Assembly (NCBI GenBank): GCA_001802455.1
Contig: MGXZ01000020.1
Location: 32,742-96,741, forward strand
From: Gammaproteobacteria bacterium RIFCSPHIGHO2_12_FULL_39_24
GTDB lineage: Bacteria; Pseudomonadota; Gammaproteobacteria; Coxiellales; Coxiellaceae
Direction: 5' to 3'
Length of the DNA: 64,000 nt
A program made the translations under genes and the position numbers. The stretch's first letter is position 1; each line of letters opens with the position of its first letter. Below are positions 26,162-42,139 of the stretch, one piece after another. Under the pieces are notes generated by a model. It was not told the DNA's origin and ran no database searches. It worked only from the letters and a program-made list of their open reading frames with translations.

Positions 26162-27138
26162 GATTCTTTTTTTTCTGTGGTTTGAAAACCAATCATACGA
26201 TCAATAATAAATATCGGTCGCTTTTTGGCTTCATCATAAATGCGCCCGATATATTCACCCACCAACCCAAGACAAAGTAATTGCACACCGGAAAAAAAAG
26301 TGATGGCCAAGATGGTGGTGGATAATCCTGGTGATAATTTAAAACCAAATAATTTTTGAATAACGTACCAAAAACCAATAATAAAACTCAGCAAAGCGGT
26401 CGATGCGCCCAATACAGACATTAATTGCAGAGGACGACTACTGAAACCAATCAACCCATTCAAACCAATCTTAAGTGATCCAGTAAAACGGTTATAATGA
26501 CCCCTGCCTGAAAAACGTGAATCGCGATCATACTCTACTGCAGTTTGTTTAAATCCCACATACGCCACTAACCCCCTTAGAAATCCATGTGATTCATTTA
26601 ATTTTCTTAATTCCTCGATCACTCTGCGCGTCATAATACGAAAATCACCTGTGTTTCTCGGTATGGAAACATCCGCTAATGCATTAATCATTTTATATCC
26701 GATGTGAGATATCAAACGTTTAATAACCGTTTCCCCTTTTCGTGAACGACGCTGTGCATAAACTACTTCATATCCCTCATTTAATTTTTGATACAATGTA
26801 GAAATTAATTCAGGTGGATCTTGCAAATCAACATCGATGACAACACACGTTTTTCCACAACAATATAAAATACCTGCCATCGTTGCAGCGGGTTGCCCAA
26901 AACGTCTTGAAAATTCAATTAACTTGATGCGAGTATCGCGCTGAATTTCATTCTCAATAGCGCGTGTTGTATTATCGGGTGATGGATCCAATGAAAATAG
27001 TATCTCATAATGCGGCGTAATACTTTGTAGTACAGGTTCTAATCTATTCAAAAAGGGCTTAATGTTATTGGCTTCCTTGTAAACCGGCACAACAACAGAA
27101 ATGGTCGTGGGATGATTAAGCAGAGATTGACTTGACAT
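26158..27138 (-). CDS. GT2 polyprenyl-phosphate glycosyltransferase (GtrB/ArnC/DPM1 type)
   Basis: 326-aa ORF with VVVPVYKEANNI, DVDLQDPPELI and two C-terminal TM helices. Confidence 0.82.
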   Translation of the reverse strand: MSSQSLLNHPTTISVVVPVYKEANNIKPFLNRLEPVLQSITPHYEILFSLDPSPDNTTRAIENEIQRDTRIKLIEFSRRFGQPAATMAGILYCCGKTCVVIDVDLQDPPELISTLYQKLNEGYEVVYAQRRSRKGETVIKRLISHIGYKMINALADVSIPRNTGDFRIMTRRVIEELRKLNESHGFLRGLVAYVGFKQTAVEYDRDSRFSGRGHYNRFTGSLKIGLNGLIGFSSRPLQLMSVLGASTALLSFIIGFWYVIQKLFGFKLSPGLSTTILAITFFSGVQLLCLGLVGEYIGRIYDEAKKRPIFIIDRMIGFQTTEKKES

Positions 27139-28324
27139 AATTACCTCTCGATTCCATCACTTCCGCTTTACGTAACACATCATAAACACGCTGAATATCC
27201 GCGCGCATATCTCTCGGATGATTTCCCACAAAAAAACCACGATCATGTGCTAAATTCGCATTGGTCATTTCACCAACGCAAGAATGATCACAATATTTTA
27301 TCACATCATGACGCAAGAAATTGCCGCCCGTGATGATGCGATATTGAATATCGGCTGCTTTCATCGCTTGCATGATTTTTTTTCGATCCAAATTATAGTG
27401 TGGATTTAAAATAATCGTAAAAGCAAACCAAGAACTTTTTCCATTTTCTTTTTGAATGATAAAACGATCATCATTACCGAATAATGATTTAAATGTTTCT
27501 GCATTTTTTCGTCTGATTTCAATAAAATGATCTAATTTTTTTAATTGTTCAATACCAATCGCACCTGATAATTCTAATGGACGTACATTGTAGCCCGGTA
27601 AAATAAATCGATAGGCTTCATAAAAATCATCATCAGATGGTGTAAATATGGTTGAATCTGTTGGTAAATCACGCGTCCAACCATGTGCGCGCATGGCTCT
27701 GGCGATGTGATAAATTTCTTCGTCATCCGTCATCACCACACCCCCCTCCATCGTGGAAATATGGTGCGAGAAAAAAGTGCTGAACGTATTCACATCACCA
27801 AATGTGCCGCACTGTTTTCCATTTAATTCAGCACCCATCGATTCACAATTATCTTCCAATAAATATAAATGATGCTTGTCGCAAAATTTTCTCAATATAT
27901 CTAATTTTGCAGGGTTTCCTAAAATACTCACCGCAACGACCATACGTGTTTTTGGCGTGAGTGCTTGTTCTAATTTACCGACATCGATATTTAAACTATC
28001 TAATTCAACATCAATAAATTTTAATGTTAAACCATATTGCATAAGTGGATAATAAGTGGTTGCCCACGAAATGGAGGGCACAATCACTTCATCGCCCGGT
28101 TTTAGGGGAGAATCCGATTTATAAAATAATGCGGCAACCGCAATTAAATTCGCAGATGAGCCTGAGTTCACCATTAATGCATACTTTCCGCCGAATTTTT
28201 TTGCAAAATCCGCTTCAAATTGTTTAACGTATTTTCCCATTGTAAAAATGCCGCCACGAATCACTTCTTGCATGGCATTCACTTCTTCTGATCCCCAAGT
28301 ACTACTGGCTAATTCATAACCCAT
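27116..28324 (-). CDS. PLP-dependent nucleotide-sugar 4-keto-6-deoxy 3-dehydratase, ColD-like (DegT fold, His in place of the PLP lysine)
   Basis: 402-aa ORF that is near-colinear with my memory of E. coli ColD (LASSTW, FTMGKYVKQFEADFAKKFG, LPGYNVRPLELSGAIGIEQLKKL). Its active-site context FFSHHISTMEGG has His where aminotransferases have Lys. Confidence 0.75.
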   Translation of the reverse strand: MGYELASSTWGSEEVNAMQEVIRGGIFTMGKYVKQFEADFAKKFGGKYALMVNSGSSANLIAVAALFYKSDSPLKPGDEVIVPSISWATTYYPLMQYGLTLKFIDVELDSLNIDVGKLEQALTPKTRMVVAVSILGNPAKLDILRKFCDKHHLYLLEDNCESMGAELNGKQCGTFGDVNTFSTFFSHHISTMEGGVVMTDDEEIYHIARAMRAHGWTRDLPTDSTIFTPSDDDFYEAYRFILPGYNVRPLELSGAIGIEQLKKLDHFIEIRRKNAETFKSLFGNDDRFIIQKENGKSSWFAFTIILNPHYNLDRKKIMQAMKAADIQYRIITGGNFLRHDVIKYCDHSCVGEMTNANLAHDRGFFVGNHPRDMRADIQRVYDVLRKAEVMESRGNYVKSISA

Positions 28325-28344
28325 TATTTTTACCTTTACTTATT

Positions 28345-29388
28345 TTATGATTTTACTAATGACACAATGGCCTCTTTGGTCGATGCAACCGTGGGATAAT
28401 AAAATTGTTCTAAATCAGCGCCAGCCGGTGAAGGACAGGCTGGTAAACCCAACCGTTTTACAGGTGCTTTCAAAAATGAGAAACCTTTTTCAGCAGCAAT
28501 AAAACCAATTTCAGCACACACACCACCAACAGCCCAACCTGTATCCACCACCAACAAACGACCTGTTTTTTTAAGCGACTCTAAAATAATCGTTTCATCT
28601 AATGGTTGGATAGTGCGAAGGTCAATCACATCAGCGTGAATATTTTTTTCTTTTTCTAATTCATTTGCGGCCGTCATTGCCAAATCGATTGCTTGTGATG
28701 CGCCTACAATAGTGACATCATTTCCGCGTCGACGATAAACACCTTTGCCCAATGGAATTTCATACGCTTCCGTTGGCACAACACCGGTTCTCTTCATCAA
28801 CCAACGATGCTCAATAATAATAGCGGGATTATTATCATTAATTGCCGAAATCATTAATCCTTTGACGTCATATGGTGTACTCGGCATCACAATTTTTAAA
28901 CCGGGAACACCTAACAATAAACCTTGAATCGCTTGTGAATGTTGCGGACCTGATCCCCACCCTCTTCCAATCGCAGCCCAAATTACCAGTGGTACGGAAT
29001 GTTGTCCGTTGTCCATCCAATGAATTTTTGATGCGTGATTGACTAATTGATTAAACGTTAATAATAAAAAATCAGGACGATTATGAAAATAAACAGGACG
29101 CATGCCTGTCATTGCAGCGCCGACACAAATTCCCGTCATCCCTTCTTCAGAAACCGGTGTATCAAAAACACGTGCAGCGCCATACATTTCTTTAAAACCT
29201 TTTGTGACACCAAACATGCCGCCTGGATCATCAACACCTTGACCCAATAAAAAAACTTTTTTGTCTTCATCCATTTTGTATGACAATGCTTCGCGAATCG
29301 CTTCAACGCTGCCGATCACACGACCATCCTGATTTACCGGGTCTTTTTGTTCGGCATTCGCAACCACTAATTTTTCATCCCACAACAT
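28345..29388 (-). CDS. ThDP-dependent 2-oxoacid dehydrogenase E1 component, beta-subunit-like
   Basis: 347-aa ORF with transketolase-like pyrimidine-binding and C-terminal domains (FDTPVSEEGMTGICVGAAMTGMRPV). Confidence 0.85.
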   Translation of the reverse strand: MLWDEKLVVANAEQKDPVNQDGRVIGSVEAIREALSYKMDEDKKVFLLGQGVDDPGGMFGVTKGFKEMYGAARVFDTPVSEEGMTGICVGAAMTGMRPVYFHNRPDFLLLTFNQLVNHASKIHWMDNGQHSVPLVIWAAIGRGWGSGPQHSQAIQGLLLGVPGLKIVMPSTPYDVKGLMISAINDNNPAIIIEHRWLMKRTGVVPTEAYEIPLGKGVYRRRGNDVTIVGASQAIDLAMTAANELEKEKNIHADVIDLRTIQPLDETIILESLKKTGRLLVVDTGWAVGGVCAEIGFIAAEKGFSFLKAPVKRLGLPACPSPAGADLEQFYYPTVASTKEAIVSLVKS

Positions 29389-29399
29389 GCGGCATTCCT

Positions 29400-30428
29400 C
29401 TAATCACAATAAACATAATTCATCAAATCATCTCGCGTTGGATGCGGACTTTGTTCCGCAAACGCGAAGGCTTTATTTATTTCTGCAGTGATTTGTTGTC
29501 TCAATTCTTCAACCTCTGATAATGGCAAAGAAAAATCTTCAATCAATACTTGTTGTAATAATGCAACGGGGTCTTTTGTTTTCCAATGCGCTAATTCTTC
29601 TGGTGTGCGATAACCCATATCTTCTTCTGAACCATGATGTCCGCGCCAACGATACGTAATGGCTTCAATAAAAGCAGGGCCAGAGCCATTATTGACATAA
29701 TCCAGCGCACGTTGCATCGCCTCATAAACAGCTAATACATTATTTCCATCAATGCATTCACTTTTTAATCCAAAGCTTTCTGCTTTTTTATAAATTCGAA
29801 TGTTGTCAGGTTGACGATAATGCAGTGGCGAACAAACAGAATAAAAATTATTTTCACAAAAATAAATCATCGGTAATTTGCGAACCGCCGCAAAATTCAT
29901 GCTTTCCCATGCCACTCCTTCTTCAACGCCCGCATCACCGGTGTACACGACTGTCTTGCGATGATTATTTTGCATTTGCGCTGATAATGAAAAACCCGTT
30001 GCAATGGGAATAGCGCCTGCAACAATCGCAGAAGAGCCCATCATACCAACAGACTTATCCATCAAGTGCATTGATCCACCACGAGAAGCAGTGCAACCTG
30101 TCATGCGACAATAAAACTCAGCAATCATTGCATTCAGATCACCGCCTTTTGCTAAATAAGCGCCATGTGTGCGATGACTGCAATAAATATAATCATCTTT
30201 GGTCAATAACGCACAACTTCCGACCACAGTGGCTTCTTGTCCAATCACCAGGTGAATGGGAGTTTTCATTTTATCTTCGTGATATCGTGCTGCAACGGTT
30301 TCTTCAATTAATCGAATGCGAAACATTTTGTAAAATAAATCCAACAAAAATGTTCGCGGATATTTTTTTGCTAATAATTTTAATGACGCAATGCCTTCGC
30401 CGTCATAGGGATATCGGATCATGGCCAT
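29400..30428 (-). CDS. ThDP-dependent 2-oxoacid dehydrogenase E1 component, alpha-subunit-like
   Basis: 342-aa ORF with the ThDP motif GDAGVEEGVAWESMNFAAVRKLPMIYFCENN. Confidence 0.85.
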   Translation of the reverse strand: MAMIRYPYDGEGIASLKLLAKKYPRTFLLDLFYKMFRIRLIEETVAARYHEDKMKTPIHLVIGQEATVVGSCALLTKDDYIYCSHRTHGAYLAKGGDLNAMIAEFYCRMTGCTASRGGSMHLMDKSVGMMGSSAIVAGAIPIATGFSLSAQMQNNHRKTVVYTGDAGVEEGVAWESMNFAAVRKLPMIYFCENNFYSVCSPLHYRQPDNIRIYKKAESFGLKSECIDGNNVLAVYEAMQRALDYVNNGSGPAFIEAITYRWRGHHGSEEDMGYRTPEELAHWKTKDPVALLQQVLIEDFSLPLSEVEELRQQITAEINKAFAFAEQSPHPTRDDLMNYVYCD

Positions 30429-30451
30429 TTTTTCCTTTATTTACACCATTT

Positions 30452-31399
30452 TTAATTTTTTTCAATCACTCGCTTTTCTGAAAAAAACCATTCATATGTT
30501 TTCTTAATTCCATCGCGAATAGCGATAGTGGGTTTCCATCCGAGTTCAGTTATTTTTTTGCTGTCTAATAATTTTTGCAACACACCATCTGGTTTTGATG
30601 TGTCCCACACAATTTCACCTCCAAAACCCACTGTTTCTGCAATCATGGTGGCAAGTTCACGAATAGACCAATCCATTCCAACACCCACATTCAGTGGCGC
30701 AGATGTTTCATCGCAACTTAAAACATGTATTACAGCACGCGCAATGTCATCCGCATGCACAAATTCACGACGCGGTGTTCCTGTTCCCCACAAAATAAGT
30801 TTGCTGAGATTTTTTTCTTTTGCGTCGTGCATTTTTGCCATCATCGCCGACATCACATGTCCCGCGTTAGGATCAAAATTATCAAATGGGCCGTAAGCAC
30901 TGTTTGGAATTAACGCGATAAAACGCTGTGTTTGATATTGCTGATTGTATGCATGACACAGTTGCACGCCCGCGAGTTTTGACATCGCGTAACTCATACT
31001 CGTCGCTTCTGGTTTTCCCGTCAACAATAAGTCTTCACTCATCGGCTGCACGCATTCACGCGGATACATGCAAGATGATCCAAAAAAAATAAGTTTATTC
31101 ACTTCAGCTTTTTGCGCTGCTTGAAACACGTTGAGTTGAATAGCGAGGTTGGTATTAATAAAATCAGCGGGCTTGGTTTTATTATAAAAAATACCGCCGA
31201 CCATTCCTGCTGCCAAAATAACGAATTGGGGTTTTATTTTTTCAACATACTGACTGACTGCGCTCGTATTCAATAAATTTAATTCAGCGCGCGTCGGATA
31301 ATGTAGGCGAGAAAACCCCAGCTCTTTAAGGTAACGCAAACAAGCTGAACCAATAAGACCTGTCGCACCCAGAATAAGAACTGAAGCTTCTCTGTCCAT
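30452..31399 (-). CDS. GDP-L-fucose synthase-like 3,5-epimerase/4-reductase (Fcl/WcaG family)
   Basis: 315-aa ORF with LILGATGLIGSA, GSSCMYP, YAMSKLAG and LWGTGTPRREFVHADD, closely paralleling Fcl. Confidence 0.8.
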   Translation of the reverse strand: MDREASVLILGATGLIGSACLRYLKELGFSRLHYPTRAELNLLNTSAVSQYVEKIKPQFVILAAGMVGGIFYNKTKPADFINTNLAIQLNVFQAAQKAEVNKLIFFGSSCMYPRECVQPMSEDLLLTGKPEATSMSYAMSKLAGVQLCHAYNQQYQTQRFIALIPNSAYGPFDNFDPNAGHVMSAMMAKMHDAKEKNLSKLILWGTGTPRREFVHADDIARAVIHVLSCDETSAPLNVGVGMDWSIRELATMIAETVGFGGEIVWDTSKPDGVLQKLLDSKKITELGWKPTIAIRDGIKKTYEWFFSEKRVIEKN

Positions 31400-32905
31400 T
31401 TACACAACCACTGCATTTGCTTCTTCAATCAATTGGCGACGCAATTTAATTTTCGTCATATCGGCAACATGATCATGCACGGCTTGTCCAAATTTTCTTT
31501 TCACCAACGCTAAATAGTTGGGATTAGTAAAATAACGATGGAAGGCGTTGTCACGGAATTTTAAAATTTCTGATGCAGGCAATGCTTCCGAACGCAATGG
31601 TTTGCTTTCGTATGCGTGTTGCGAATAACCAATCCACGAATCAGGCAATGCCCATTTTTTCTCGAGCGCGAGATCGTACAATTTCGATCCCGGATAAGCC
31701 ATCGCACAATAAAAATTAGCAAATTCACAATTCGCTTCAATGGCTAAATCCAATGTTTCATTCATCGATTCGGTCGTATCGTCGGGCAATCCAAAAATAT
31801 AATTACCAATAACATAAATACCAGCAGCTTGAATTTTGCGAACCACTTTGATGATGTCTTCACTGCCAAAACGACCTTTTTCAACACCATCACGCACATG
31901 CTTGCTGCCTGATTCGATACCGAGCGCCAACCAACGAATGCCGGCTGCACGCAATTTTTCTAAAAATTCATCTTTAACGGTATCCACGCGCGCATAGGCC
32001 CAAATATTTAAATCATAATTACGCTCAATTAATAAATCACAAATGCCAATGACATGATTTCTTTTTAAAACAAACATTTCATCAACAAATTTAATATTTT
32101 TAATGCCATACTCATTTACCAGCACATCAATTTCTTCCACCACTGTTTTGGGAGACCACATCCGATAAGAAGATTTTCCAAAGGGTGCATTAATGCAGCA
32201 AAATGTGCATTTGTAAGGACATCCTAAACTAGTATGGATCGATGCGTACGGTTGACGATCATTAATGTGATCGAAGCAATGCCAATTATGCGCGCGATAT
32301 TTATCCATTGGTAATAAATCCCACGCACCGCCCGGCATATCCGCATCTAAATTATCTAACAACAGTCCTTTTGGTGTAGACAACGCAACACCGCCGCGTT
32401 TGTACCACAAACTGGGCACCGCACTAAAATCAGTAGAGCCTGCTTTTAAAGCTTGAAATGTTTGCCAAATGGTTTGTGGACCTTCCTGACTGCACACAAA
32501 ATCAATTTGTTCTTCATTTAATGTTCTCGCCGGCAATGCAGCAGGATGCGTTCCCGTCATCATGATTTTGCATTGCGGCGATAATTGTTTTAGCGCAGTA
32601 CACGTTTCGCTGGCTGCCATCATGTTTTGTGTTGAAGCGGAAGGTTGAAAACCGTACACCACCATCACAATTAAAGTGGCATCATAATTATCCGCAATAT
32701 ACTTTGCTGTCATTGCAGGACTAAAATGACGAATTGGCGCATCAACAATATCGACTGTGCCGCCTTTTACGCGAACGTAAGTTGCAAACAGTGCTGCCAA
32801 AGAAGGGGGTTCGAACGCCGAAAATTCACTACTTAATTCTTGATATATCGCTGCTGGTGAGCCCGGATTAACTAACAGTACATCCACTTTTTGTTTGCCG
32901 CTCAT
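31400..32905 (-). CDS. B12-binding-domain radical SAM enzyme (class B, methyltransferase-like)
   Basis: 501-aa ORF with an N-terminal Rossmann-like cobalamin-binding region followed by GCPYKCTFCC (CxxxCxxC). Confidence 0.8.
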   Translation of the reverse strand: MSGKQKVDVLLVNPGSPAAIYQELSSEFSAFEPPSLAALFATYVRVKGGTVDIVDAPIRHFSPAMTAKYIADNYDATLIVMVVYGFQPSASTQNMMAASETCTALKQLSPQCKIMMTGTHPAALPARTLNEEQIDFVCSQEGPQTIWQTFQALKAGSTDFSAVPSLWYKRGGVALSTPKGLLLDNLDADMPGGAWDLLPMDKYRAHNWHCFDHINDRQPYASIHTSLGCPYKCTFCCINAPFGKSSYRMWSPKTVVEEIDVLVNEYGIKNIKFVDEMFVLKRNHVIGICDLLIERNYDLNIWAYARVDTVKDEFLEKLRAAGIRWLALGIESGSKHVRDGVEKGRFGSEDIIKVVRKIQAAGIYVIGNYIFGLPDDTTESMNETLDLAIEANCEFANFYCAMAYPGSKLYDLALEKKWALPDSWIGYSQHAYESKPLRSEALPASEILKFRDNAFHRYFTNPNYLALVKRKFGQAVHDHVADMTKIKLRRQLIEEANAVVV

Positions 32906-32921
32906 TTTCCTGTTCTCCTAA

Positions 32922-34024: not shown

Positions 34025-36151
34025 ATGGATACCGTCAACAAAAATATTTTCTGTAAACAGTATGATTTGTTTCTCAATATTACGCTCTTGCTGTTATTGC
34101 TTTTTCTCACCGTAAAAATGAATTGTATTCCGGCGCATGATACTTTTTGGCAATATCAGTCATTTTTTGTTTTTTACAACCATTTTTATTTTTACAAAAC
34201 CATACTACAGTGGTTCCCTTATGGCTCATATGGCATACCAGCAATGCCGTTCAACTTGATGTCAATAACACCCGCTCTTTACTTAATAACATTTGTTGGA
34301 AAAGTCTTGGATGTGACAAACACATTACTTTTATTTGAAATGGGTATTTATATTGAAATTTTTATTTATTTTATTGGATTATATTTTCTGTTGATAGAAC
34401 TCAATGTCAGCAAGTCGATTCGTTTTATTGTTTTACTCTCAGCGCTCTCAACTACCGCATGGCAATGGCAAATTGGATTTATGCTCAATATTTTTTACTT
34501 GATTCCACTTATTTTATTTTGTTTTATTAGATTGGATAAAACAAAACAAATAAGGTGGTTATATTATTCTGGTTATATTTTCTTAATTAACATTATCGGT
34601 ATAGCAACTTATTTAATACTCATTCAATTTTATACACTGTTTTTCTTTTTTATTGGGCTGTTAATCACAAATCGTGCTTTATCTAAAACAGTATTTTCAA
34701 CTGCTATTTTTAAAACGAAATATTTTGCGCTGCTCATTATAATGTTGATTCCTTTTATCACCATGGCGCATTTCATCACACATGATTTGATTGATCTGAC
34801 ACCCGGCAGAATACATGGTTACAATACAGTGGATACCTTTATCCATTATGCTTTTCAACCCATTGGTAATGTCGTTTATGGATATCTGACTGGCAATATT
34901 TCACTCTCAGATAATACGTACTATATCGGACTTTTTTTATTAGCCGCTTTTATTTACGGAATTTTTTATTGCGACAATAAATACTTTCGAGCATTTTTAT
35001 TACCAATCATTTTTTTAATATGGCTTTCGATATCCGGTATTTTTGCACACATTGTTTATTTTTTTCCAGGAATGAAATACTATCGCCACATTGATCTCAC
35101 ATTCGGCATCACCAGTTGTTTAATGATCATTAGCGCGGCGATTATCATACAAAATATTGTTAATGATCATACGCGTCGTTTTGTGTGTCCGACATTTTTT
35201 ATTATAATATTTACGTTAATGATTGTTGATTTTTTAGTAAGTCACTTTGTCCTACACACTATTCCAACATTTCATTCTACTGTCCCCATAAAAATACTCA
35301 CTACAAAATTTAATCTTTATCAGCTTTTTTTCTGTATGCGAATTATTTTTTATTCAACATTTATTTTTTTTGCAGCACGCTCGCAACGACCCATTTGGAT
35401 TATCTTATTTTCTATTGCTATTTTTGATGTGATGAGCTACCAATTTCTACAACTATACGATATCAAACACAACTATTTTACAGCGACAAAAACAATCACC
35501 ACGGCTGAGAAAATAAAATATCAACCCAAACGAAGCGATACTGTTAAAAACATGACGCCGAATCAACTGGAACGTTGGAACTTATCGACCAACATGGCTT
35601 CTGTTAAAAATTCGTTGGATGATAATTCTGCAGTTTATTCCCAATCTACTTATTTATTTGCTTCATCAGACCCGTGTCATCCCAAATACCGAGTTGATTT
35701 ATTATCACCATCGATTGCACCGCTTTTTCAACAAATCAATCATGGGCACGGAACTAACAACCTGCTCAATATCATTGGCTGCCACTCATCAAAATTATTT
35801 TTAAATGGACTGCCGCTGTTTACGTTTCAATTAAATCACTTTAGTGGTGACACCGTTTCTTTTACCGTTGAAAATAAAAGTGATCGATCTCAACTGTTAA
35901 CCTATGCTGATGCTCAATATCCAGGTTGGACGGTATTTATTGATGGGCAACAAAAAAAACTGATGACAACACAGCATGGATTCAAAGCAGTCGTACTGTC
36001 ACCGGGGGTGCATACAGTATATTTTGAATATGCAAATTTACTTTATTTAATTTTATCGTGGTTTTTAGCGGGCGCCTCATTGTTATTTTTTCTCTCACTC
36101 ATTATGTCGCTATCAGTGTTTTTATCAAAATTAATTCGCTCTGCCACATAA
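34025..36151 (+). CDS. YfhO-like polytopic GT-C glycosyltransferase (second copy)
   Basis: 708-aa ORF with many TM helices. A C-terminal soluble segment carries YPGWTVFIDGQQKKLMTTQHGFKAVVLSPGVHTVYFEY and is followed by a terminal TM helix. Confidence 0.65.
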   Translation: MDTVNKNIFCKQYDLFLNITLLLLLLFLTVKMNCIPAHDTFWQYQSFFVFYNHFYFYKTILQWFPYGSYGIPAMPFNLMSITPALYLITFVGKVLDVTNTLLLFEMGIYIEIFIYFIGLYFLLIELNVSKSIRFIVLLSALSTTAWQWQIGFMLNIFYLIPLILFCFIRLDKTKQIRWLYYSGYIFLINIIGIATYLILIQFYTLFFFFIGLLITNRALSKTVFSTAIFKTKYFALLIIMLIPFITMAHFITHDLIDLTPGRIHGYNTVDTFIHYAFQPIGNVVYGYLTGNISLSDNTYYIGLFLLAAFIYGIFYCDNKYFRAFLLPIIFLIWLSISGIFAHIVYFFPGMKYYRHIDLTFGITSCLMIISAAIIIQNIVNDHTRRFVCPTFFIIIFTLMIVDFLVSHFVLHTIPTFHSTVPIKILTTKFNLYQLFFCMRIIFYSTFIFFAARSQRPIWIILFSIAIFDVMSYQFLQLYDIKHNYFTATKTITTAEKIKYQPKRSDTVKNMTPNQLERWNLSTNMASVKNSLDDNSAVYSQSTYLFASSDPCHPKYRVDLLSPSIAPLFQQINHGHGTNNLLNIIGCHSSKLFLNGLPLFTFQLNHFSGDTVSFTVENKSDRSQLLTYADAQYPGWTVFIDGQQKKLMTTQHGFKAVVLSPGVHTVYFEYANLLYLILSWFLAGASLLFFLSLIMSLSVFLSKLIRSAT

Positions 36152-37053
36152 ACCAAAGGGCGCTTCAGAATTTGCGTGTGAATACTGGCAACATATTCAC
36201 CGATGATTCCAAGAAAAAATAACAATATTGAAAAAAAGAAAAATAACGCGATCATAATGGGTGCGATACCCGCATAAAAATGATTCCAAAAAATAAGTTT
36301 TAAAATAAATAATGCAGCAGCACAAAACAGGCTAAATACAGATAAAAAAAGTCCTAGCATCGTTGCTAATCGGATCGGCACTTTTGAGTGACTCGTAAAC
36401 CCCAGTATCGCCCAATCAAAAAGAATATAAAAATTGGCTTTCGAAGCACCGCGTTTTCTAAGTGGTTGCAAAAAAGGAATTTCTTTAATTGGATAACCAA
36501 TCTCTGAAATAATTCCTCTGAAATAGGGATACGAATCACCCAGCTCTTTGATCGCATGAATAACTGTTTTGTCATATAAACCAAAGCCGGTGAAATTTTT
36601 AACGAGTTTTATATTCGCAATTTTATTGGCAAGCCAGTAATATAATTTTCTCACTCTAGCCATCAAAAAACCTTCTTGGGTTTTTGCTTTTGTCGCAACA
36701 ACAATTTTCCAACCCGCCTCCCACGCTGTCAAAAAATCCTTAATCAGTTCTGGCGGATCTTGTAAATCACACACAATCGAAATAACCACATCCCCTTTTG
36801 CCTGAAAATAACCATACACAGGTGAACGCACAGGACCAAAGTTTCTAGTATTAACAATAATTTTCACATTATTATCTTGTGCTGCGATTCTTTTTAAAAT
36901 AGAAACGGTTTTATCTTCAGAACAGTTATCAATAAAAATATGCTCATAATGATATTGCGGTAATTCAGAAAATATTTTTTTCACCTGCTCATATAGATCA
37001 GCAGCATTTTCTTCTTCGTTATAACAAGGCGTCACCACAGAGATCAGCTTCAT
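36043..37053 (-). CDS. GT2 polyprenyl-phosphate glycosyltransferase (GtrB/ArnC/DPM1 type), second copy
   Basis: 336-aa ORF with VVTPCYNEEENA, VCDLQDPPELI and two C-terminal TM helices. Its hydrophilic tail overlaps the convergent GT-C gene by 109 nt. Confidence 0.82.
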   Translation of the reverse strand: MKLISVVTPCYNEEENAADLYEQVKKIFSELPQYHYEHIFIDNCSEDKTVSILKRIAAQDNNVKIIVNTRNFGPVRSPVYGYFQAKGDVVISIVCDLQDPPELIKDFLTAWEAGWKIVVATKAKTQEGFLMARVRKLYYWLANKIANIKLVKNFTGFGLYDKTVIHAIKELGDSYPYFRGIISEIGYPIKEIPFLQPLRKRGASKANFYILFDWAILGFTSHSKVPIRLATMLGLFLSVFSLFCAAALFILKLIFWNHFYAGIAPIMIALFFFFSILLFFLGIIGEYVASIHTQILKRPLVYVAERINFDKNTDSDIMSERKNNNEAPAKNHDKIK

Positions 37054-37409
37054 AATACGTTCCTAAAAACAAAATGTTTATTCGCATAATAACTCGCGAA
37101 CGCCAATAGCACGATCGCTATTCCGCCATCAAGATAAAGATCAGAAATAAAATCATGCAACAAATGTATTATTCCGATGTTCAAAAAATACAGCACTAAA
37201 TACAAAAAACAAAATCGTAAAAAAAAATTGTCATTTTTAAAAACAAGTCTGCTGATGGTAAAAAAGTTAAAAATCACACCCAGTACCGTTGAACCCAGCG
37301 CTGCGAAGAGATAGGAGATGTTCAAAAAAACAAGAGCGCTAAAGATTGCGTACCCAAAAAGCGTGTTCAGGCCACCCACTAACAAAAAACGAATAAATCG
37401 AGCATTCAT
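37050..37409 (-). CDS. GtrA-family membrane protein
   Basis: 119-aa ORF starting MNARFIRFLLVGGLNTLFGYAIF (typical GtrA N-terminus), with four hydrophobic helices. It has 4-nt overlaps on both sides. Confidence 0.75.
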   Translation of the reverse strand: MNARFIRFLLVGGLNTLFGYAIFSALVFLNISYLFAALGSTVLGVIFNFFTISRLVFKNDNFFLRFCFLYLVLYFLNIGIIHLLHDFISDLYLDGGIAIVLLAFASYYANKHFVFRNVL

Positions 37410-39184
37410 GCACTTTGTTTCATCACTAGAAAATAATTTTCAACCATCTGATAGTGTGGTTCATATAATGGTCGCCAACTCAGGTAACCATCTTCTTTTA
37501 TTTCACGATACAAGGCTTGCCTACTTATTTCTTTGAAATTTAATTTTTTATAAAGATCAATCGCGCGCGAATTGTTTCCCAACACTTTTAAATAATATTG
37601 CTGAATATCTAAAAATATTTTTCCCCAGCTCATCATCGCCTCACATGCGAAAAGCATAACACCTTTGTGATAATTTATTTTTCCACGCACAATGTTATCT
37701 ATTTCGCACGCCTTGTTTTTCCAATCAAAACGATTCAAACCAACATGGCCAACATATTCCCCATTTTTCTCTCTCACAAAAAACAAAACCCTGTCTTTTG
37801 CTTTCGTGAGTAAATGCTCAAGCCATCGCTTTGTGCTTTCTACCGTTACATCAAACTCATCTAAAAATCCGTGTTGATTTTTCTTTCTCCACTCCATCAA
37901 GAACAATATTTTTTGGTCATTCAATCTGTCATTCTGACAAATTGCTTCCAGCGTAAATAACGCGCCGTTACAATTAAAATCAATTAAATATCCATTTTCC
38001 TTAATATCCGCTATTTTTTTTATAACTTCTTCTTTATGAGACATCCAGCCTTGCAATGCATGTTGGGCAGATGCTTGCTTCATCACCAGTTGTTTGATTG
38101 CACCGCAAACATAATCAATTTCTTCTTCTGATAAATTATGCCCACTTGGTAAATTAATTCCACGAGAACCAACAAAATAAGCATTGGGATTATTTTCGCG
38201 CTGAAACATTGGCATCGAGCTAAGTGGATGAAATACCGGTCTTGAATCAACCCCTTTTTCTTTTAATTTCTGAATAAAATCATCTCTGGTTTCTGGGATA
38301 TCATTACTCAAAATAATAGATGTCATCCAAAAGATATTATTCACATTTTTCTTTTCAACATTTAATTTCAGTAACTCAATATCATTCAATCGACTTTGAT
38401 ACCATTTGAATATTTTTTTTTTCTGGGCAACAATTTCTTCAACACGCTCAAGTTGCGCCAAACCCAATGCCGCTTGCATATTTGACATTTTATATTTAAA
38501 TCCAATGCTGGTATTAAACAGCGGAACTTTGGGATCTCGACCATGGTCACCAAAATATTGCGCCTTTTCAAAAAGAACTTTGTTGTTCGTTACCAGCATT
38601 CCGCCTTCGCCAGTCACAATCGCTTTTGCACCTTGAAAACTAAACGCAGCCGCATCACCAAATGATCCGGTTCGTTTTCCATGATAAGTTGCACCAATAC
38701 TTTGCGCTGCGTCTTCGATCACAAATAAATTATGTTTTTTTGCGAGTGCCAACAGTGGTTCCATATCACAAGGATGTCCGTATAAATGTACTGGCATGAT
38801 TGCAATCGTTTTGGGAGTAATTAATTTTTCAACTGATTCTGGCAACATTGTCCACGATTCTAAATCGATATCACAAAAAACAGGTGTTGCACCAACATAT
38901 TTCACAACCGATGCTGTTGCCACCCACGTTATCTCGGGAACAATAATTTCATCACCTTCTTTTATGTTCAGTGCTTTTAAAATAAGATGCATTGCGCCTG
39001 TGCAACTGGAAGTGGCTAATGCATGACTAACATCCAAATATTTTGCAAATTGATTTTGGAATTTACTCAGATAGTTTGCCCAACTGTGATTCCATCCATT
39101 GGCAACTGCGTCAGCAACATAAGCAATTTCTTTATTTGTAATGCTGGGACCTGCAGTTAAAATAACATCACTTATTTTACTCAT
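37406..39184 (-). CDS. Bifunctional DegT/DnrJ/EryC1-type sugar aminotransferase fused to a C-terminal GNAT N-acetyltransferase domain
   Basis: 592-aa ORF. The N-terminal ~380 aa retain the PLP lysine (FSFQGAKAIVTGEGG). The C-terminal ~190 aa are GNAT-like (VGHVGLNRFDWKNKACEIDNIVRG...NSRAIDLYKKLNF). Confidence 0.8.
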   Translation of the reverse strand: MSKISDVILTAGPSITNKEIAYVADAVANGWNHSWANYLSKFQNQFAKYLDVSHALATSSCTGAMHLILKALNIKEGDEIIVPEITWVATASVVKYVGATPVFCDIDLESWTMLPESVEKLITPKTIAIMPVHLYGHPCDMEPLLALAKKHNLFVIEDAAQSIGATYHGKRTGSFGDAAAFSFQGAKAIVTGEGGMLVTNNKVLFEKAQYFGDHGRDPKVPLFNTSIGFKYKMSNMQAALGLAQLERVEEIVAQKKKIFKWYQSRLNDIELLKLNVEKKNVNNIFWMTSIILSNDIPETRDDFIQKLKEKGVDSRPVFHPLSSMPMFQRENNPNAYFVGSRGINLPSGHNLSEEEIDYVCGAIKQLVMKQASAQHALQGWMSHKEEVIKKIADIKENGYLIDFNCNGALFTLEAICQNDRLNDQKILFLMEWRKKNQHGFLDEFDVTVESTKRWLEHLLTKAKDRVLFFVREKNGEYVGHVGLNRFDWKNKACEIDNIVRGKINYHKGVMLFACEAMMSWGKIFLDIQQYYLKVLGNNSRAIDLYKKLNFKEISRQALYREIKEDGYLSWRPLYEPHYQMVENYFLVMKQSA

Positions 39185-39198
39185 CTTTATTTCCTACA

Positions 39199-40098
39199 TT
39201 AATTTAACGTTATTTCTATCGACAACAAATCTCTAAAATGATTTTGATCGCCCACTAACTTTGGAATAAAATCTCGAAAGCCCAATCGATGCACCAAGGG
39301 TATTTTCGTTATTTCGCCTTTGAAAAATAATTCATGTATTTTTTCAAGAATAGCGCTACCGAAACCACCATCCAACTGATGTTCTTCTACCGTAAATATT
39401 TTTTTGGATTTTTTAACAATACTACTTATTCCTTGAATATCCATCGGCTTGATGACGGGAACACTATATAAGCTAAAAGCGAGTTTTTTTTCTTTCAAGA
39501 TGGTGTAAACAAAATGGGTGATCGTGCCGGTCGTTAAAATAGATATGTCTGAATTATTTTCAATAATGGGTAACACTCTTTCCACAGACTTAATTTCACC
39601 ATCATGCAAAACATCTGAACCGCCTTTATCTAAGCGAATATAACAAGGGCAGGAATATAACATCGCATTTTCTAGCGATGCTTTGGTTTCTCTGATATCA
39701 GCGGGCGTGTAGACACGTATGTTTGGTAATGCACGCAATATTGCCATGTCTTCAATTCCATGGTGCGTATACCCAGCACTACCATAAGTAAATCCTGCGC
39801 CAATCGAAATAATTTTTACATTAGCGTTGTGGTAACACAAATCATTTCGAATTTGTTCTAAACACCTGAGTGATGGGAAATTGGCAATGGAGTAAACAAA
39901 AACCGTTTTTCCCGCAAGCGCCATTCCAGAAGCAACACCAATCATATTCTGTTCTGCGACACCGGCATTAATAAATTGATTTGGAAATTGTTCCTGAAAT
40001 TTTTCAAGAACAGAGTATCCCAAATCACCCGTCATCAAAATAAGATTAGGATTATTTTTTCCCATTTCTACTAATGTATTAATTAAAACGGTTCTCAC
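39199..40098 (-). CDS. Split transketolase, C-terminal (pyrimidine-binding) subunit
   Basis: 299-aa ORF with FINAGVAEQNMIGVASGMALAGK, typical of the transketolase central domain. Confidence 0.85.
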   Translation of the reverse strand: MRTVLINTLVEMGKNNPNLILMTGDLGYSVLEKFQEQFPNQFINAGVAEQNMIGVASGMALAGKTVFVYSIANFPSLRCLEQIRNDLCYHNANVKIISIGAGFTYGSAGYTHHGIEDMAILRALPNIRVYTPADIRETKASLENAMLYSCPCYIRLDKGGSDVLHDGEIKSVERVLPIIENNSDISILTTGTITHFVYTILKEKKLAFSLYSVPVIKPMDIQGISSIVKKSKKIFTVEEHQLDGGFGSAILEKIHELFFKGEITKIPLVHRLGFRDFIPKLVGDQNHFRDLLSIEITLN

Positions 40099-40104
40099 AT
40101 TTTT

Positions 40105-40911
40105 TTACCCCAATTCTTTTTGCGCTAAATTAAATTGCTCGGCATTAGGAGAGGCATAATGCCACTGTAATTTATTTTCCATAAAACCAACGCCCCTTCC
40201 CTTCACGGTATGCGCAATAATGATGGTTGGTTTATTCGATATATTTTTCTTATTCAATTGTGTTTTAATATCAGCATGATCATGACCATCTATTTCAACC
40301 ACATTCCAACCAAATGCTTTCCATTTATCTGAAAATGGTTCAAGACGCATAATTTCTTCCACCGTTCCTAGTCCTTGTAATTTGTTATAGTCAACTATCA
40401 TGTTTACATTATCTAACTGATGATGCGCACAAAATAATGCTGACTCCCATGTTGTTCCTTCATCACATTCTCCATCACTCAATAAAACAAAAACACGATT
40501 AGATTTTTTATCCAACTTAAATGCTTTTGCAATTCCACTCGCTACTGGTAATCCATGACCTAATGATCCCGTAGAAAGTTCCACACCTGGAACACCATTT
40601 GCGGTGACATGACCAAATAATCGAGAATCATTTTGACAATACGTTGTCAGCTCTTCTTCCGAAATAAATCCGTAAGCAGCCAATGTCGCATACATTGCTG
40701 CAACACCATGTCCTTTACTTAAAATAAAATAATCTCGTTCAACTGAACGGTAAGTCGCTGGAGAAATACGAAGCACATCCGAATACAAAACGGCTAAAAT
40801 ATCAATCACAGAAAATGATGAACCGATATGCGAACTCTTCGATTCCGTAATCATTTTTAAAACTAGTTTTCTAATTTTAAGTGCGATAAATATAGAATCT
40901 TTTTTATTCAT
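40105..40911 (-). CDS. Split transketolase, N-terminal (ThDP-binding) subunit
   Basis: 268-aa ORF with SHIGSSFSVIDILAVLY, SKGHGVAAMYA and LSDGECDEGTTWESALFCAHHQLDNV. Confidence 0.85.
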   Translation of the reverse strand: MNKKDSIFIALKIRKLVLKMITESKSSHIGSSFSVIDILAVLYSDVLRISPATYRSVERDYFILSKGHGVAAMYATLAAYGFISEEELTTYCQNDSRLFGHVTANGVPGVELSTGSLGHGLPVASGIAKAFKLDKKSNRVFVLLSDGECDEGTTWESALFCAHHQLDNVNMIVDYNKLQGLGTVEEIMRLEPFSDKWKAFGWNVVEIDGHDHADIKTQLNKKNISNKPTIIIAHTVKGRGVGFMENKLQWHYASPNAEQFNLAQKELG

Positions 40912-40915
40912 ATTG

Positions 40916-42139
40916 TTATCGACTTTTTAAAAACAATGAAACAGATTCATGCATATGATCCAGCATAGCTTGTGTCAACCCATGATGACACGCTAATAAA
41001 ATACCACCTCGCATCACTTGATCCGCATTCGGATAATGATCTCGTTTTTTGCATACCATATTTTTGAATCCAGGTTGTCTTAAAATATTGCCTGTGAAAA
41101 CAGTACGCGTTTGTATATTTCTTTTTTCTAAAAATAGTTGTAATTCTGTTCGAGTAAACGGTGCATCATCTTTTACCATCACTGGAAAAGCTAACCAACC
41201 TGTGCGCGAATACTGGAGTTGTTTTGGTAAAATAAAATAGGATTCATGTTGTTTGAAAAAATTTTTTTGTTTTTCAAACCAATGAATGCGTGCATCAATA
41301 TTTTTTTGTAAATTATCTAATTGCACCAAACCAAAAGCGGCACACATTTCATTTGCTTCTAAATTATAACCTAACGCCTCAAAAACAAATTTTGCATCGT
41401 AGCGCATCCCCTCAACATCAACACTAAAGCGATTCTCAATCGACTCAGATTCAACAAATAAAGAAGAACTGCGTCCCCAACTTCTTAGTAATTTCGCACG
41501 ATTTGATAAACGGTCATCATTCACACACAACATACCGCCATTACCGCCACAACTAATCACATGCGATCCATAGAAGCTGGTCGTGGAGATATCAACAAAT
41601 TGTCCTGTAGTGTGATTATCAATCGTTGCGCTCAATGTGTCTGCTGAATCTTCAATCAGTATTAAATTATATTTATCTGCAATTGTTTTTATTTTTTTCC
41701 AATCCGGTAAATTACCCAATAAATTCGGGATCATCATCGCTTTTGTTTTTGAAGTAATCATCGATTCAATTTGATCAACATCGATATTAAATGTATCAGG
41801 TTCTACATCGATAAACACAGGCACTAAACCATTACGCACTAATGGCGCAATAGTTGTTGAAAAAGTTAAAACAGGTGTGATAATTTCAGAACCTGCTGGC
41901 AAATCTAGAATTTCCACCGCGAGATAATTCGCTGAGGAACCTGAGTTCACCATAATACCGTGCTTTTTTGCAAACAACGTTGCGATACGCGCTTCCATCT
42001 CATATACATGCTTTCCCATTTGCGTTGATGTATTTAACACGTGCATCACCGCATTTTTTTCTGCTTCACCCCAAACAGCTTTTCCGTATGGCACATGAAT
42101 GAATTGCTCTTGCATTTTACGCTCAACCACGGTTGTCAT
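40916..42139 (-). CDS. PLP/PMP-dependent NDP-4-keto-6-deoxyhexose 3-dehydratase, E1 (RfbH/DdhC)/SpnQ-like
   Basis: 407-aa DegT-fold ORF. Its active-site context TSFYGSHVISCGGNGG has His at the position of the Schiff-base Lys. It lies directly downstream of rfbF-rfbG. Confidence 0.7.
   Translation of the reverse strand: MTTVVERKMQEQFIHVPYGKAVWGEAEKNAVMHVLNTSTQMGKHVYEMEARIATLFAKKHGIMVNSGSSANYLAVEILDLPAGSEIITPVLTFSTTIAPLVRNGLVPVFIDVEPDTFNIDVDQIESMITSKTKAMMIPNLLGNLPDWKKIKTIADKYNLILIEDSADTLSATIDNHTTGQFVDISTTSFYGSHVISCGGNGGMLCVNDDRLSNRAKLLRSWGRSSSLFVESESIENRFSVDVEGMRYDAKFVFEALGYNLEANEMCAAFGLVQLDNLQKNIDARIHWFEKQKNFFKQHESYFILPKQLQYSRTGWLAFPVMVKDDAPFTRTELQLFLEKRNIQTRTVFTGNILRQPGFKNMVCKKRDHYPNADQVMRGGILLACHHGLTQAMLDHMHESVSLFLKSR

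Follow-up and report, generated by a model that had tools for sequence, protein, structure and literature searches.

What does a thiamine diphosphate (ThDP)-dependent enzyme do in a polysaccharide locus, and why should a single locus hold two of them? The question is raised by a 64,000-nucleotide stretch of contig MGXZ01000020.1 (positions 32,742 to 96,741 of the forward strand; hereafter "the window", in whose own numbering coordinates are given) from the uncultured groundwater organism Gammaproteobacteria bacterium RIFCSPHIGHO2_12_FULL_39_24, in which a transketolase (TK) split into two genes and a pair of E1α and E1β subunits each lie beside a sugar 3-dehydratase of the DegT family and near a family 2 glycosyltransferase (GT2) with its GtrA partner. 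The initial annotation had interpreted these two sets of genes as one functional cassette (deoxygenation at C3, ThDP-dependent addition of a carbon branch, loading onto a polyprenyl phosphate and flipping) assembled twice from non-homologous parts. According to our analysis, the region is on balance probably made up of two independent three-component periplasmic glycosylation modules, each provided with its own cytoplasmic synthesis of a C-branched deoxy sugar, and both are best read as carrying out ThDP-dependent C-branching of an NDP-3-deoxy-4-keto sugar. The gene identities, the states of the catalytic residues, the synteny and the co-occurrence of the genes were established directly; from these we infer the substrates, the regiochemistry of branching, the order of the steps and the nature of the acceptor.

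Both modules are contained in a ~34 kb run of minus-strand genes that extends from position 50730 to 16817 with gaps or overlaps of a few bases and is flanked by housekeeping genes, with rsmB, glyS and glyQ on one side and mtnA and the gene of a large surface protein on the other. Module 1 spans positions 44067 to 36043 and module 2 positions 33866 to 19521; since the genes of the two arrays are separated by 0–23 nt or overlap by 4–25 nt, both arrays look like operons (genes are on the minus strand unless otherwise indicated). All open reading frames (ORFs) listed in the initial annotation were recovered at their positions on this strand with the domains attributed to them (Pfam, NCBIfam), and alignments to solved relatives bear out that both DegT dehydratases carry His instead of Lys at the catalytic column and represent different subtypes, their best solved relatives being 3BCX (E1) and 2GMS (ColD), respectively. 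Overlooked had been a Lys-type DegT–GNAT fusion located between the transketolase and GtrA (37406..39184) and two polytopic membrane proteins (34025..36151, plus strand, and 16817..19537, minus strand) that may complete the three-component systems.

Module 1 begins with the genes of an RfbF-type glucose-1-phosphate cytidylyltransferase (43234..44067; TIGR02623, 462 bits with a cut-off of 300) and of a CDP-glucose 4,6-dehydratase (42143..43213; TIGR02622, 505 bits with a cut-off of 278), followed by a His-type sugar 3-dehydratase of the E1/RfbH clade (40916..42139), to which, among solved structures, the Yersinia E1 dehydrase 3BCX (E 4.5e-64) comes closest. His220 of E1 is kept, its position being fixed by the H220K mutant 3BB8 and by the alignment of 'YGSHVISCGG' with 'YPAHHIT' of E1. 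On the other hand, every Cys of the E1 [2Fe-2S] cluster is replaced ('EDCC' → 'EDSA' and 'CYCAPGCDNTC' → 'SSSLFVESESI') and the RfbH model NF011936 yields 320 bits, below its cut-off of 423, so that this dehydratase must manage with neither the cluster nor an E3 reductase and presumably follows a ColD-like, glutamate-dependent route; an E3-like gene of the ferredoxin-reductase type was not found among the annotated ORFs of the window.

The relatives of this dehydratase, which form a family with 64–84% identity in Coxiellaceae, Legionella, Thiotrichales and related metagenome-assembled genomes (MAGs), provide the strongest argument as to the substrate of the ThDP enzyme of module 1. A genome scan yielded seven distinct close loci at 64–81% identity (sampled loci are designated by L and a number; here L012, which is the same locus as L016, L013, L014, L015, L017, L018 and L019), the other 39 hits being remote DegT proteins that were left out. 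All seven have a YerE-like ThDP enzyme of ~576–618 aa within 8 kb of the dehydratase, that of L012 displaying the Pfam domains TPP_enzyme_N/M/C. RfbF-like and CDP-glucose 4,6-dehydratase genes lie directly upstream of the dehydratase in five of the seven and were not detected upstream in L015 and L018, the RfbF-type orthologues of L012–L019 being 61–70% identical to that of the window; an orthologue (55–59% identity) of the GT2 encoded at 36043 is likewise found in five of the seven, two of which (L014 and L019) also have a GtrA with 40% identity. The window itself contains no YerE-like gene (tblastn with the L012 protein, best E 0.39) and it is the split TK that directly follows the dehydratase, occupying the slot of YerE. 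YerE is the proven C2-branching enzyme acting on CDP-3,6-dideoxy-4-keto-glucose in yersiniose synthesis (PMC12247030, PMC9306805); a non-orthologous replacement of YerE in an otherwise conserved cassette therefore suggests that the TK acts on the same keto sugar.

Is the TK itself equipped for such a task? It consists of an N-terminal, PP-domain half (TK-N, 40105..40911; PF00456, Transketolase_N, E 4e-42), which matches a protein from the MAG Gammaproteobacteria bacterium RIFCSPHIGHO2_02_FULL_39_13 at 100% identity, and of a C-terminal half (TK-C, 39199..40098; PF02779 and PF02780) for which 6YAJ ranks first among solved relatives (E 3e-46). With the residue roles as assigned for the E. coli enzyme, EcTK (PMC7661550), the donor-side residues (EcTK H26, H66, H100, H261 and H473) are kept, along with the ThDP–Mg motif and the cofactor-activating Glu, and the two halves retain the motifs 'SSHIG', 'SKGHG', 'FGHV', 'SDGE...DYN', 'QWHY' and 'GVAEQN'. 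To judge from these residues, the TK looks catalytically competent on its donor side and, since the equivalent of His100 is kept, transfer of a ketol (hydroxyacetyl) group would be expected. On the acceptor side, the residues that hold a phosphorylated aldose appear to be lost: Gly stands in for EcTK H461 and Ala for D469, and the Ser loop 'DADLSxST' has become 'TGDLGYSV'.

These replacements are not peculiar to the window. A scan of metagenome contigs with TK-N returned 80 loci at 47–58% identity, 66 of which have a full TK-C and could be classified. Eighteen of the 66 belong to a pentose-phosphate class in which H461, D469 and H473 ('SHAGITVGGDGASHQ') as well as the 'DADLSxST' loop are kept, these being also the residues and the loop of the characterised Carboxydothermus split TK (6YAJ). 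The remaining 48, and in addition the window, constitute a glycan class with Gly (Ser in one) in place of H461, one of Leu, Gln, Val and Ala in place of D469, and the loop shortened to 'GDLGFGV', in which H473, the cofactor Glu, the donor His residues of TK-N and the ThDP–Mg motif persist.

It could be argued that both ThDP enzymes are central-metabolic, i.e., a pyruvate dehydrogenase E1 and a pentose-phosphate transketolase that merely happen to lie within a polysaccharide locus. The names of the NCBIfam models that they match (the alpha and beta subunits of pyruvate dehydrogenase E1, transketolase) and the presence of a transaldolase gene in the window (19521..20273) would agree with this; yet all these matches score below the equivalog cut-offs, the transaldolase is 19 kb away from the TK and adjoins a GmhA-like gene, the domain annotation of the window ORFs includes no E2 or E3 gene of a lipoyl complex, both enzymes are in strict synteny with sugar genes, and TK-C is without H461 and D469, which are kept by all 18 split TKs of the pentose-phosphate type. 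A central-metabolic role is extremely improbable and can be taken as ruled out by the active-site signature, by the absence of E2/E3 genes from the window and by the synteny.

The two TK classes also differ in their neighbourhoods, which were counted in the loci with at least 3 kb of flank (39 of the glycan class and 16 of the pentose-phosphate class). A DegT or CDP-glucose 4,6-dehydratase gene is a neighbour in 23/39 glycan-class and in 0/16 pentose-phosphate loci (Fisher p = 3.4e-5), whereas a transaldolase gene neighbours 13 of the 16 pentose-phosphate TKs and none of the 39 others. Within the glycan class, CDP-glucose cassettes accompany the 'GQH' sequences, and Lys-type DegT aminotransferases the 'GLH' sequences; the Lys-type DegT genes are present in 14/39 loci, within 200 nt of the TK in 11, and a cassette of RfbF, CDP-glucose 4,6-dehydratase and GT2 without any DegT is found in 10/39. 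A His-type DegT is encountered in just two of the 39 (L068 and L094), both of which repeat the arrangement of dehydratase and TK, with L085 and L115 representing two further cases in shorter data. The three nearest TK loci (L001–L003, L004 and L005; exact look-up) are similar in that the partner is not typically a 3-dehydratase.

The suggestion that TK and 3-dehydratase form the selected pair must accordingly be abandoned. At 2/39 loci, the 3-dehydratase is ruled out as an obligate partner of the split TK and 3-deoxygenation becomes optional for the glycan-type family; the selected pairing is that of the glycan-type TK with enzymes that make or consume NDP-keto sugars. We would tentatively go one step further and consider it possible, if somewhat short of an even chance, that the glycan-type split TKs (H461 → Gly; D469 → Leu, Gln or Ala) constitute a large, hitherto unrecognised family of enzymes that C-branch NDP-4-keto sugars in environmental and Gram-negative polysaccharide loci, with YerE-like, split-TK and E1α/β carboligases being interchangeable on the same deoxysugar scaffold.

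The gene that follows the TK encodes a 592-aa fusion of a Lys-type DegT aminotransferase (PF01041, E 1.8e-114) with a GNAT domain (37406..39184); its catalytic column is K, the solved structure closest to it is that of the perosamine synthetase 3BN1 (E 5e-92), and orthologues with 45–59% identity lie beside TKs in L092, L094, L102 and L115. This adjacency fits a sequence of events in which the TK would generate an α-hydroxy-ketone branch that the aminotransferase would then aminate, transamination of a branch ketone being known in kibdelomycin (PMC12247030). The pathway of module 1 would thus proceed from glucose-1-P via CDP-glucose to CDP-4-keto-6-deoxyglucose; the Fe–S-less E1-clade dehydratase would remove the C3 hydroxyl, probably by the ColD route with glutamate, to yield CDP-3,6-dideoxy-4-keto-glucose; the glycan-type split TK would add a two-carbon ketol (hydroxyacetyl) unit at C4; the aminotransferase–GNAT would aminate and N-acetylate the side-chain ketone; finally, the GT2 would load the sugar onto polyprenyl phosphate, GtrA would flip it and a GT-C-like protein would transfer it to a periplasmic acceptor.

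A different use of the same enzymes is conceivable, in which the TK does not branch the ring at all: together with the Lys-type DegT and the GNAT it would make a small N-acetylated amino-alcohol or ketol substituent, or would use some other carbonyl, while the CDP-3,6-dideoxy-4-keto sugar would be aminated at C4 and acetylated. The greater frequency of Lys-type than of His-type DegT genes beside glycan-type TKs and the relatedness of the fusion to perosamine synthetase, a C4-aminotransferase, agree with this scheme. We nevertheless hold it to be unlikely, because the 10/39 TK loci having RfbF, CDP-glucose 4,6-dehydratase and GT2 but no DegT indicate that the aminotransferase is not required by the glycan-type TK, because the TK sits in what is the YerE position of seven distinct orthologous cassettes, because amination of the C4 ketone would leave the TK of the same operon without an obvious carbonyl acceptor and because, as just mentioned, transamination of a branch ketone has a precedent. 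Ring branching by the TK is preferred in what follows.

Module 2 is built around a different ThDP enzyme, consisting of a stand-alone E1 alpha subunit (29400..30428; PF00676, E1_dh, E 7e-64; 2OZL, E 2e-44) and an E1 beta subunit (28345..29388; PF02779 and PF02780; orthologues with 63–79% identity), followed by a ColD-type, pyridoxal/pyridoxamine phosphate (PLP/PMP)-dependent sugar 3-dehydratase (27116..28324; 2GMS, E 2.6e-133). In the latter, His188 of ColD is kept, as seen from the alignment of 'FFSHHISTMEGG' in the window with 'FYSHHIATMEGG' in E. coli ColD, the position being fixed by the H188N and H188K mutant entries. Upstream are the genes of an epimerase/reductase resembling GDP-L-fucose synthase (Fcl) or ColC (30452..31399; NF047922, 366 bits with a cut-off of 500; 1BSV, E 4e-83), of a B12-binding, HpnJ-like radical SAM protein (31400..32905; PF02310 and PF04055; HpnJ TIGR03471, 177 bits, below cut-off) and of a short-chain dehydrogenase/reductase (SDR; 32922..33866), to which we return below.

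Homologues of E1α are plentiful from 75% down to 53% identity, some of them being named from Chlamydiales MAGs. In the six other sampled loci having an E1α homologue with at least 53% identity (L006, L008/L009, L010/L011, L139, L140 and L141), E1α, E1β and a His-type ColD are invariably syntenic, the ColD orthologues being 64–81% identical and all of the His type; E1α/E1β directly abut ColD in five of these loci and are separated from it by two genes in L140. Most cassette loci also have the radical SAM protein (66–80% identity), a GHMP kinase (37–40%), an Fcl-like protein (48–58%, in L008, L139, L140 and L141), an NTP-transferase and the SDR of 32922..33866 (70–79%, in L006, L010, L139, L140 and L141). 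L139 is from Leptospirillum ferriphilum, L140 adjoins a capsule-export (Wza-type) gene and L141 adjoins flagellar genes; in the latter, the cassette (6492..14914) comes directly after flgI, flgK and a flagellin-like gene (1..5000) and lies beside a NeuB-like gene, a context that hints at flagellin glycosylation with the sugar of the cassette. A more distant E1α/β pair (34–38% identity) is located beside a Lys-type DegT in L004, and the occurrence of both ThDP classes, split TK and E1α/β, in one locus recurs in L004, L073 and L086. The contention that the adjacency of ThDP enzymes and dehydratases is not a matter of chance is upheld; the relatives of the first dehydratase are paired with YerE-like enzymes and the E1–ColD association is kept in 6/6 other loci.

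Which sugar, then, would the E1α/β pair branch? The initial annotation had assumed a 4-keto-3,6-dideoxy sugar, and in module 2 this part of its proposal finds little agreement. No Gmd or other 4,6-dehydratase for this module was found in the window (best gmd score 51 bits). The SDR of 32922..33866 has as its best solved relatives 6VO6/6VO8 (E 1.1e-111), the first of which we take to be Cj1427, the PDB label reading 'putative sugar-nucleotide epimerase/dehydratase'; this SDR is probably an NDP-heptose C4-dehydrogenase of the Cj1427 type. An L-2-hydroxyglutarate oxidase (47556..48767; NF008726, 316.5 bits with a cut-off of 299), orthologues of which accompany the cassette in L006, L010 and L140, probably recycles the co-product of such a dehydrogenase; we know of no description of this coupling. 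Precursor supply may be attributed to the genes at 19521..22981, which encode an HddA-like GHMP kinase, a sugar-1-P nucleotidyltransferase, a GmhA-like SIS protein and, at the 3′ end of the module, the transaldolase; the transaldolase match is above cut-off (TIGR02134, 337 bits), those to HddA (181 bits), HddC (96 bits) and GmhA (53 bits) are below. Cj1427 itself regenerates NAD+ by reducing α-ketoglutarate to L-2-hydroxyglutarate and, together with a ColD-like C3-dehydratase dependent on PLP and glutamate, it yields GDP-D-glycero-3-deoxy-4-keto-heptose in vitro (PMC10680097). Because of the 6VO6-like SDR, the L-2-hydroxyglutarate oxidase, the Hdd/Gmh-like genes, the lack of a 4,6-dehydratase in the window and this Campylobacter jejuni precedent, the acceptor of E1α/β is probably GDP-3-deoxy-4-keto-heptose; a GDP-3,6-dideoxyhexose is less likely, there being no Gmd/4,6-dehydratase and the 6VO6-like dehydrogenase being conserved instead.

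As to the nature of the branch, avilamycin, aldgamycin, paulomycin and kibdelomycin offer cases in which genetics or biochemistry links E1α/β pairs to the addition of a C2 branch from pyruvate (PMC12247030, PMC4802897). In module 2, an NDP-heptose, probably GDP-D-glycero-D-manno-heptose, would be oxidised at C4 by the Cj1427-type dehydrogenase, with the L-2-hydroxyglutarate oxidase recycling the co-product; the C3 hydroxyl would be removed by the ColD-type enzyme and the stand-alone E1α/β would add a pyruvate-derived acetyl group at C4. The product would be tailored by the HpnJ-like B12 radical SAM protein and by several reductases/epimerases, the candidates for which include, besides the Fcl/ColC-like enzyme, a GalE-like SDR, a short-chain SDR and a GFO/IDH/MocA oxidoreductase encoded at 22965..25776, and would eventually be exported by the second GT2/GtrA pair, possibly with a second GT-C.

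ColD and a ColC/Fcl-like reductase catalyse the last two steps of the colitose pathway, and the presence of both in module 2 raises the alternative of an ordinary, unbranched 3-deoxy or 3,6-dideoxy (colitose-like) sugar, E1α/β being engaged elsewhere, e.g., in making an acetyl or hydroxyethyl substituent or in acting on a non-sugar keto compound. Indeed, two of the loci with YerE-like genes, L013 (17108..19310) and L015 (6648..8768), contain a ColD (54–59% identity) and Fcl-like pair without E1α/β, which probably represents a colitose-type pathway of the ordinary kind. Compared with the ColD of the window, however, the copies linked to E1 show 64–81% identity, the E1-less copies only 54–59%; E1α/E1β abut ColD in five of the six cassette loci; and L006 and L010, which have no Fcl-like gene near the cassette, keep E1α/β, ColD, the radical SAM protein and the 6VO6-like SDR. 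An unbranched product is therefore quite unlikely, and a branched sugar, probably of the heptose type, is the reading that we retain. A bolder structural proposal can be added, albeit as a long shot. HpnJ is believed to turn a sugar into a cyclopentane ring, and PMC9092360, the source of this view, describes the origin of caryose as unknown; by analogy, the heptose cassette (Cj1427-like, ColD, E1α/β and HpnJ-like radical SAM) could build a caryose-type carbocyclic nonose (4,8-cyclo-3,9-dideoxynonose), in which C1–C7 would derive from the heptose, the 3-deoxy function from ColD and C8–C9 from the acetyl group placed at C4, the radical SAM enzyme forming the C7–C8 bond and so closing the ring from C7 to the carbonyl of the acetyl group. 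No relevant literature was found on the heptose/E1/radical SAM cassette, nor on split transketolases in O-antigen or capsule loci.

Two further sets of genes lie close to this pathway. Two soluble proteins without Pfam match (538 aa, minus strand, and 321 aa, plus strand) are encoded at 14333..16864; their orthologues in L006 (13312..15661; 32% and 44% identity) are directly beside the ColD gene, and both proteins are probably part of the module-2 pathway. The locus has at its edge, next to the gene of a class II aldolase, that of the 5-methylthioribose-1-P isomerase MtnA, whose match is above cut-off (12673..14336); an MtnA orthologue with 60% identity lies inside the cassette locus L006 (5110..6222). 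These two enzymes may provide 5-deoxyribose (DHAP-shunt) salvage for the 5′-deoxyadenosine produced by the radical SAM enzyme.

How would the two sugars reach the periplasm? Module 1 contains a GtrA-family small membrane protein with four hydrophobic segments, a candidate flippase (37050..37409; PF04138, 57.8 bits with a cut-off of 26.1; 40% identity orthologues in L014 and L019), and a GtrB/ArnC/PgfS-type GT2 that may act as polyprenyl-phosphate glycosyltransferase (36043..37053; PF00535); their counterparts in module 2 are encoded at 25787..26161 (PF04138, 67.5 bits) and at 26158..27138 (PF00535), the latter gene overlapping that of ColD by 23 nt. Each GT2 gene overlaps its GtrA gene by 4 nt, and each of the two GtrA-linked GT2s has two C-terminal hydrophobic segments, which are found in neither of the other two GT2s of the window. 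The scores of the module 1 and module 2 enzymes are 185 and 242 bits with the PgfS model (cut-off 500) and 114 and 147 bits with the ArnC model (cut-off 529); as judged by their sequences, they share the PgfS/ArnC architecture and belong to different subfamilies. The proposed loading onto polyprenyl phosphate is thus favoured by the GtrB/ArnC/PgfS-type build and by the C-terminal segments, while the assignment to either of these families is not reached at the PgfS and ArnC cut-offs.

The third component could be supplied by the two polytopic membrane proteins. The first, of 708 aa with 12 hydrophobic segments (34025..36151, plus strand), is a candidate GT-C matching YfhO with 26.9 bits (cut-off 28.5); its ORF converges with that of the module 1 GT2, the 3′ ends overlapping by 109 nt (36043..36151). 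The second candidate, of 906 aa with 14 hydrophobic segments (16817..19537, minus strand), matches YfhO with 21 bits, below cut-off. Both weak matches are confined to the C-terminus and pairwise comparison of the two proteins gave no usable similarity. Loading onto polyprenyl phosphate, flipping and GT-C-like transfer would make a reasonable model. The combination of a membrane-anchored GT2, a GtrA and a polytopic protein, present twice in the locus, recalls GtrA/GtrB/GtrC, ArnC/ArnT, CsbB–GtcA–YfhO and the S. mutans Pgf system; unlike in these three-component systems, the GT2s are below the PgfS/ArnC cut-offs, module 1 would draw on a CDP-sugar as donor and the GT-C candidates match YfhO weakly.

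If the same cassette exists twice, do the two copies have a common origin? Pairwise BLAST alignment gives 25% identity between the GT2s (E 4e-39) and no significant similarity between the GtrAs (BLASTP, E 0.24), which are related solely through their common Pfam family PF04138; the dehydratases are 32% identical. Recent duplication of the GT2/GtrA pairs is ruled out by the first two of these results, and the alignments as a whole speak for independent recruitment. The sequence DLQDPPELI is, as had been noticed, common to both GT2s; DLQDPPE falls in a region conserved between the two domains and is a family-wide motif, so that it is uninformative with regard to recent duplication. The ThDP enzymes, on the other hand, are not "unrelated" as had been supposed: TK-C and E1β have the same two Pfam domains (Transket_pyr and Transketolase_C) and 21% identity (E 2e-5), TK-N and E1α have 21% identity (E 2e-6), and these halves are distant homologues. 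All four pairs of components are in fact homologous at the superfamily level (the GtrAs through the Pfam family alone), which contradicts the notion of non-homologous parts; two anciently diverged paralogous toolkits would fit these alignments better than a convergent assembly. As for ThDP branching being the selected function, it stands as the best reading of both modules, with the reservation that in module 2 it would probably not take place on a 3,6-dideoxyhexose.

A number of considerations weigh against the interpretation given here. The commonest neighbour of the glycan-type TKs is a Lys-type aminotransferase and not a dehydratase, and the one in the window, being closest to the C4-aminating perosamine synthetase, could compete for the C4 ketone. 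The function ascribed to glycan-type split TKs is a prediction from sequence and context, and even the Streptomyces TKs are stated to be unproven (PMC12247030). The surveys are small and come from similarity-ranked samples. The heptose assignment depends on sub-threshold matches to HddA, HddC and GmhA and on taking 6VO6 to be Cj1427, and with an Fcl/ColC-like enzyme present a plain, unbranched colitose-type product is conceivable. The GT-C assignment, being below the Pfam threshold, is weak. Finally, GT2 and GtrA are not conserved beside the module-2 cassette in most other loci; the lipid-linked route would therefore belong to this genome and not to the cassette as such.

That ThDP enzymes branch sugars is not a new concept: a 2025 review distinguishes three classes that branch keto sugars, namely YerE-like enzymes (LPS), E1α/β enzymes termed αKADH2 and split transketolases (PMC12247030). 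The YerE-like enzymes of branched LPS sugars include ErwE, MMAR_2332 and MygE (PMC9306805, PMC12247030), and module 1 follows the same route from CDP-glucose through 4,6-dehydratase and 3-dehydratase as the yersiniose A pathway (RfbF, RfbG, E1/E3, YerE, YerF; PMC9306805, PMC12247030), with a ThDP enzyme directly after the dehydratase and a YerE-like gene accompanying the closest relatives of the latter. The differences are that the window has a split TK instead of a single-chain YerE-like enzyme of ~580–620 aa with TPP_enzyme_N/M/C domains, that its dehydratase is without the [2Fe-2S] Cys residues and has no E3 reductase nearby, that an aminotransferase–GNAT follows and no YerF-type reductase is found in the window, and that the product is probably placed on polyprenyl phosphate and not used by a Leloir transferase.

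The split TKs of the review are 13 candidates, 'all from Streptomycetes' and none characterised (PMC12247030); for those of miharamycin and amipurimycin and of 13 further Streptomyces biosynthetic gene clusters, hydroxyacetyl branching has been proposed (PMC12247030). The likeness to the miharamycin/amipurimycin enzymes, as drawn from their description, lies in a two-gene TK within a sugar-modification cluster and in the proposed keto-sugar acceptor; indeed, the TK of the window is directly downstream of RfbF, RfbG and the 3-dehydratase, i.e., inside a cluster that produces a keto sugar. Whereas the Streptomyces TKs pertain to secondary metabolism, that of the window is in a low-GC gammaproteobacterial surface-glycan locus, would act on a CDP-sugar and is part of a large environmental subfamily (48/66 sampled TK-C with the H461G, D469X signature).

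The αKADH2 enzymes are known from secondary metabolites, in ~120 clusters (PMC12247030), and comprise AviB1/B2, the aldgamycin and kosinostatin enzymes, Plm8/Plm9 and KbDH-α/β (PMC12247030, PMC4802897). The E1α/β of the window resembles them in standing alone, without E2/E3, in an NDP-keto-sugar pathway, and an acetyl branch that is later tailored would likewise be expected; transfer of a pyruvate-derived acetyl group to a sugar ketone is indeed suggested by analogy with Plm8/9, AviB1/B2 and KbDH (PMC4802897, PMC12247030). The known cases, however, are actinomycete antibiotic sugars made on dTDP-deoxyhexoses or pentoses, whereas the partner in the window is ColD, in a cassette that numbers up to eight genes and includes those of a Cj1427-like dehydrogenase, a GHMP kinase and a B12 radical SAM protein, and this cassette occurs in Leptospirillum and in gammaproteobacterial MAGs, beside flagellar or capsule-export genes. 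With the GDP-heptose pathways of C. jejuni (PMC10680097) module 2 shares the 6VO6-like SDR, the ColD-like PLP dehydratase and HddA/HddC-like and Fcl-like genes, but there is no ThDP or radical SAM step there, and the 3-deoxy-D-glycero-heptoses obtained with the HS:5 C3-dehydratase were novel in vitro products, not natural ones (PMC10680097). The new elements are the substitution of a split TK for YerE on a CDP-sugar within the surface-glycan locus of a Gram-negative bacterium, a signature by which a large glycan-associated subfamily of TKs can be told from the pentose-phosphate TKs, a heptose/ColD/E1α/β/radical SAM cassette spanning several phyla and the coexistence of both ThDP classes in one locus, although part of these items may already have been catalogued in earlier surveys.

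The remainder of the window contains additional sugar-related genes. A third set, at 222..7507 (minus strand), encodes an amine oxidase-like flavoprotein, an SDR epimerase, a 476-aa UbiA-family prenyltransferase, a second GHMP kinase, an ABC transporter ATPase and an HddC-like nucleotidyltransferase; the gene at 8565..12671 (plus strand), which borders the glycan locus, codes for what is likely a surface protein, with 1368 aa and matches to Big_9 and the LVIVD repeat. The genes rmlA, rmlC and rmlD are present (44865..46301 and 49804..50730), and no protein of the window reaches the cut-off for RmlB (dTDP-glucose 4,6-dehydratase).

Branched-chain sugars are strong antigens and useful chiral building blocks. 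If the reading given above is true, all three classes of carboligases would serve surface glycans, beyond the present picture of YerE-like enzymes in LPS and of the rest in actinomycete antibiotics, and the split-TK class would be common and not rare. By the simple signature of the glycan-type enzymes, many genes of polysaccharide loci that are annotated as "transketolase" or "pyruvate dehydrogenase E1" would have their annotation corrected, and these loci would offer a new pool of ketone-accepting ThDP enzymes for biocatalysis, while the cassette conserved across phyla would present itself as a target for determining the structure of its product.

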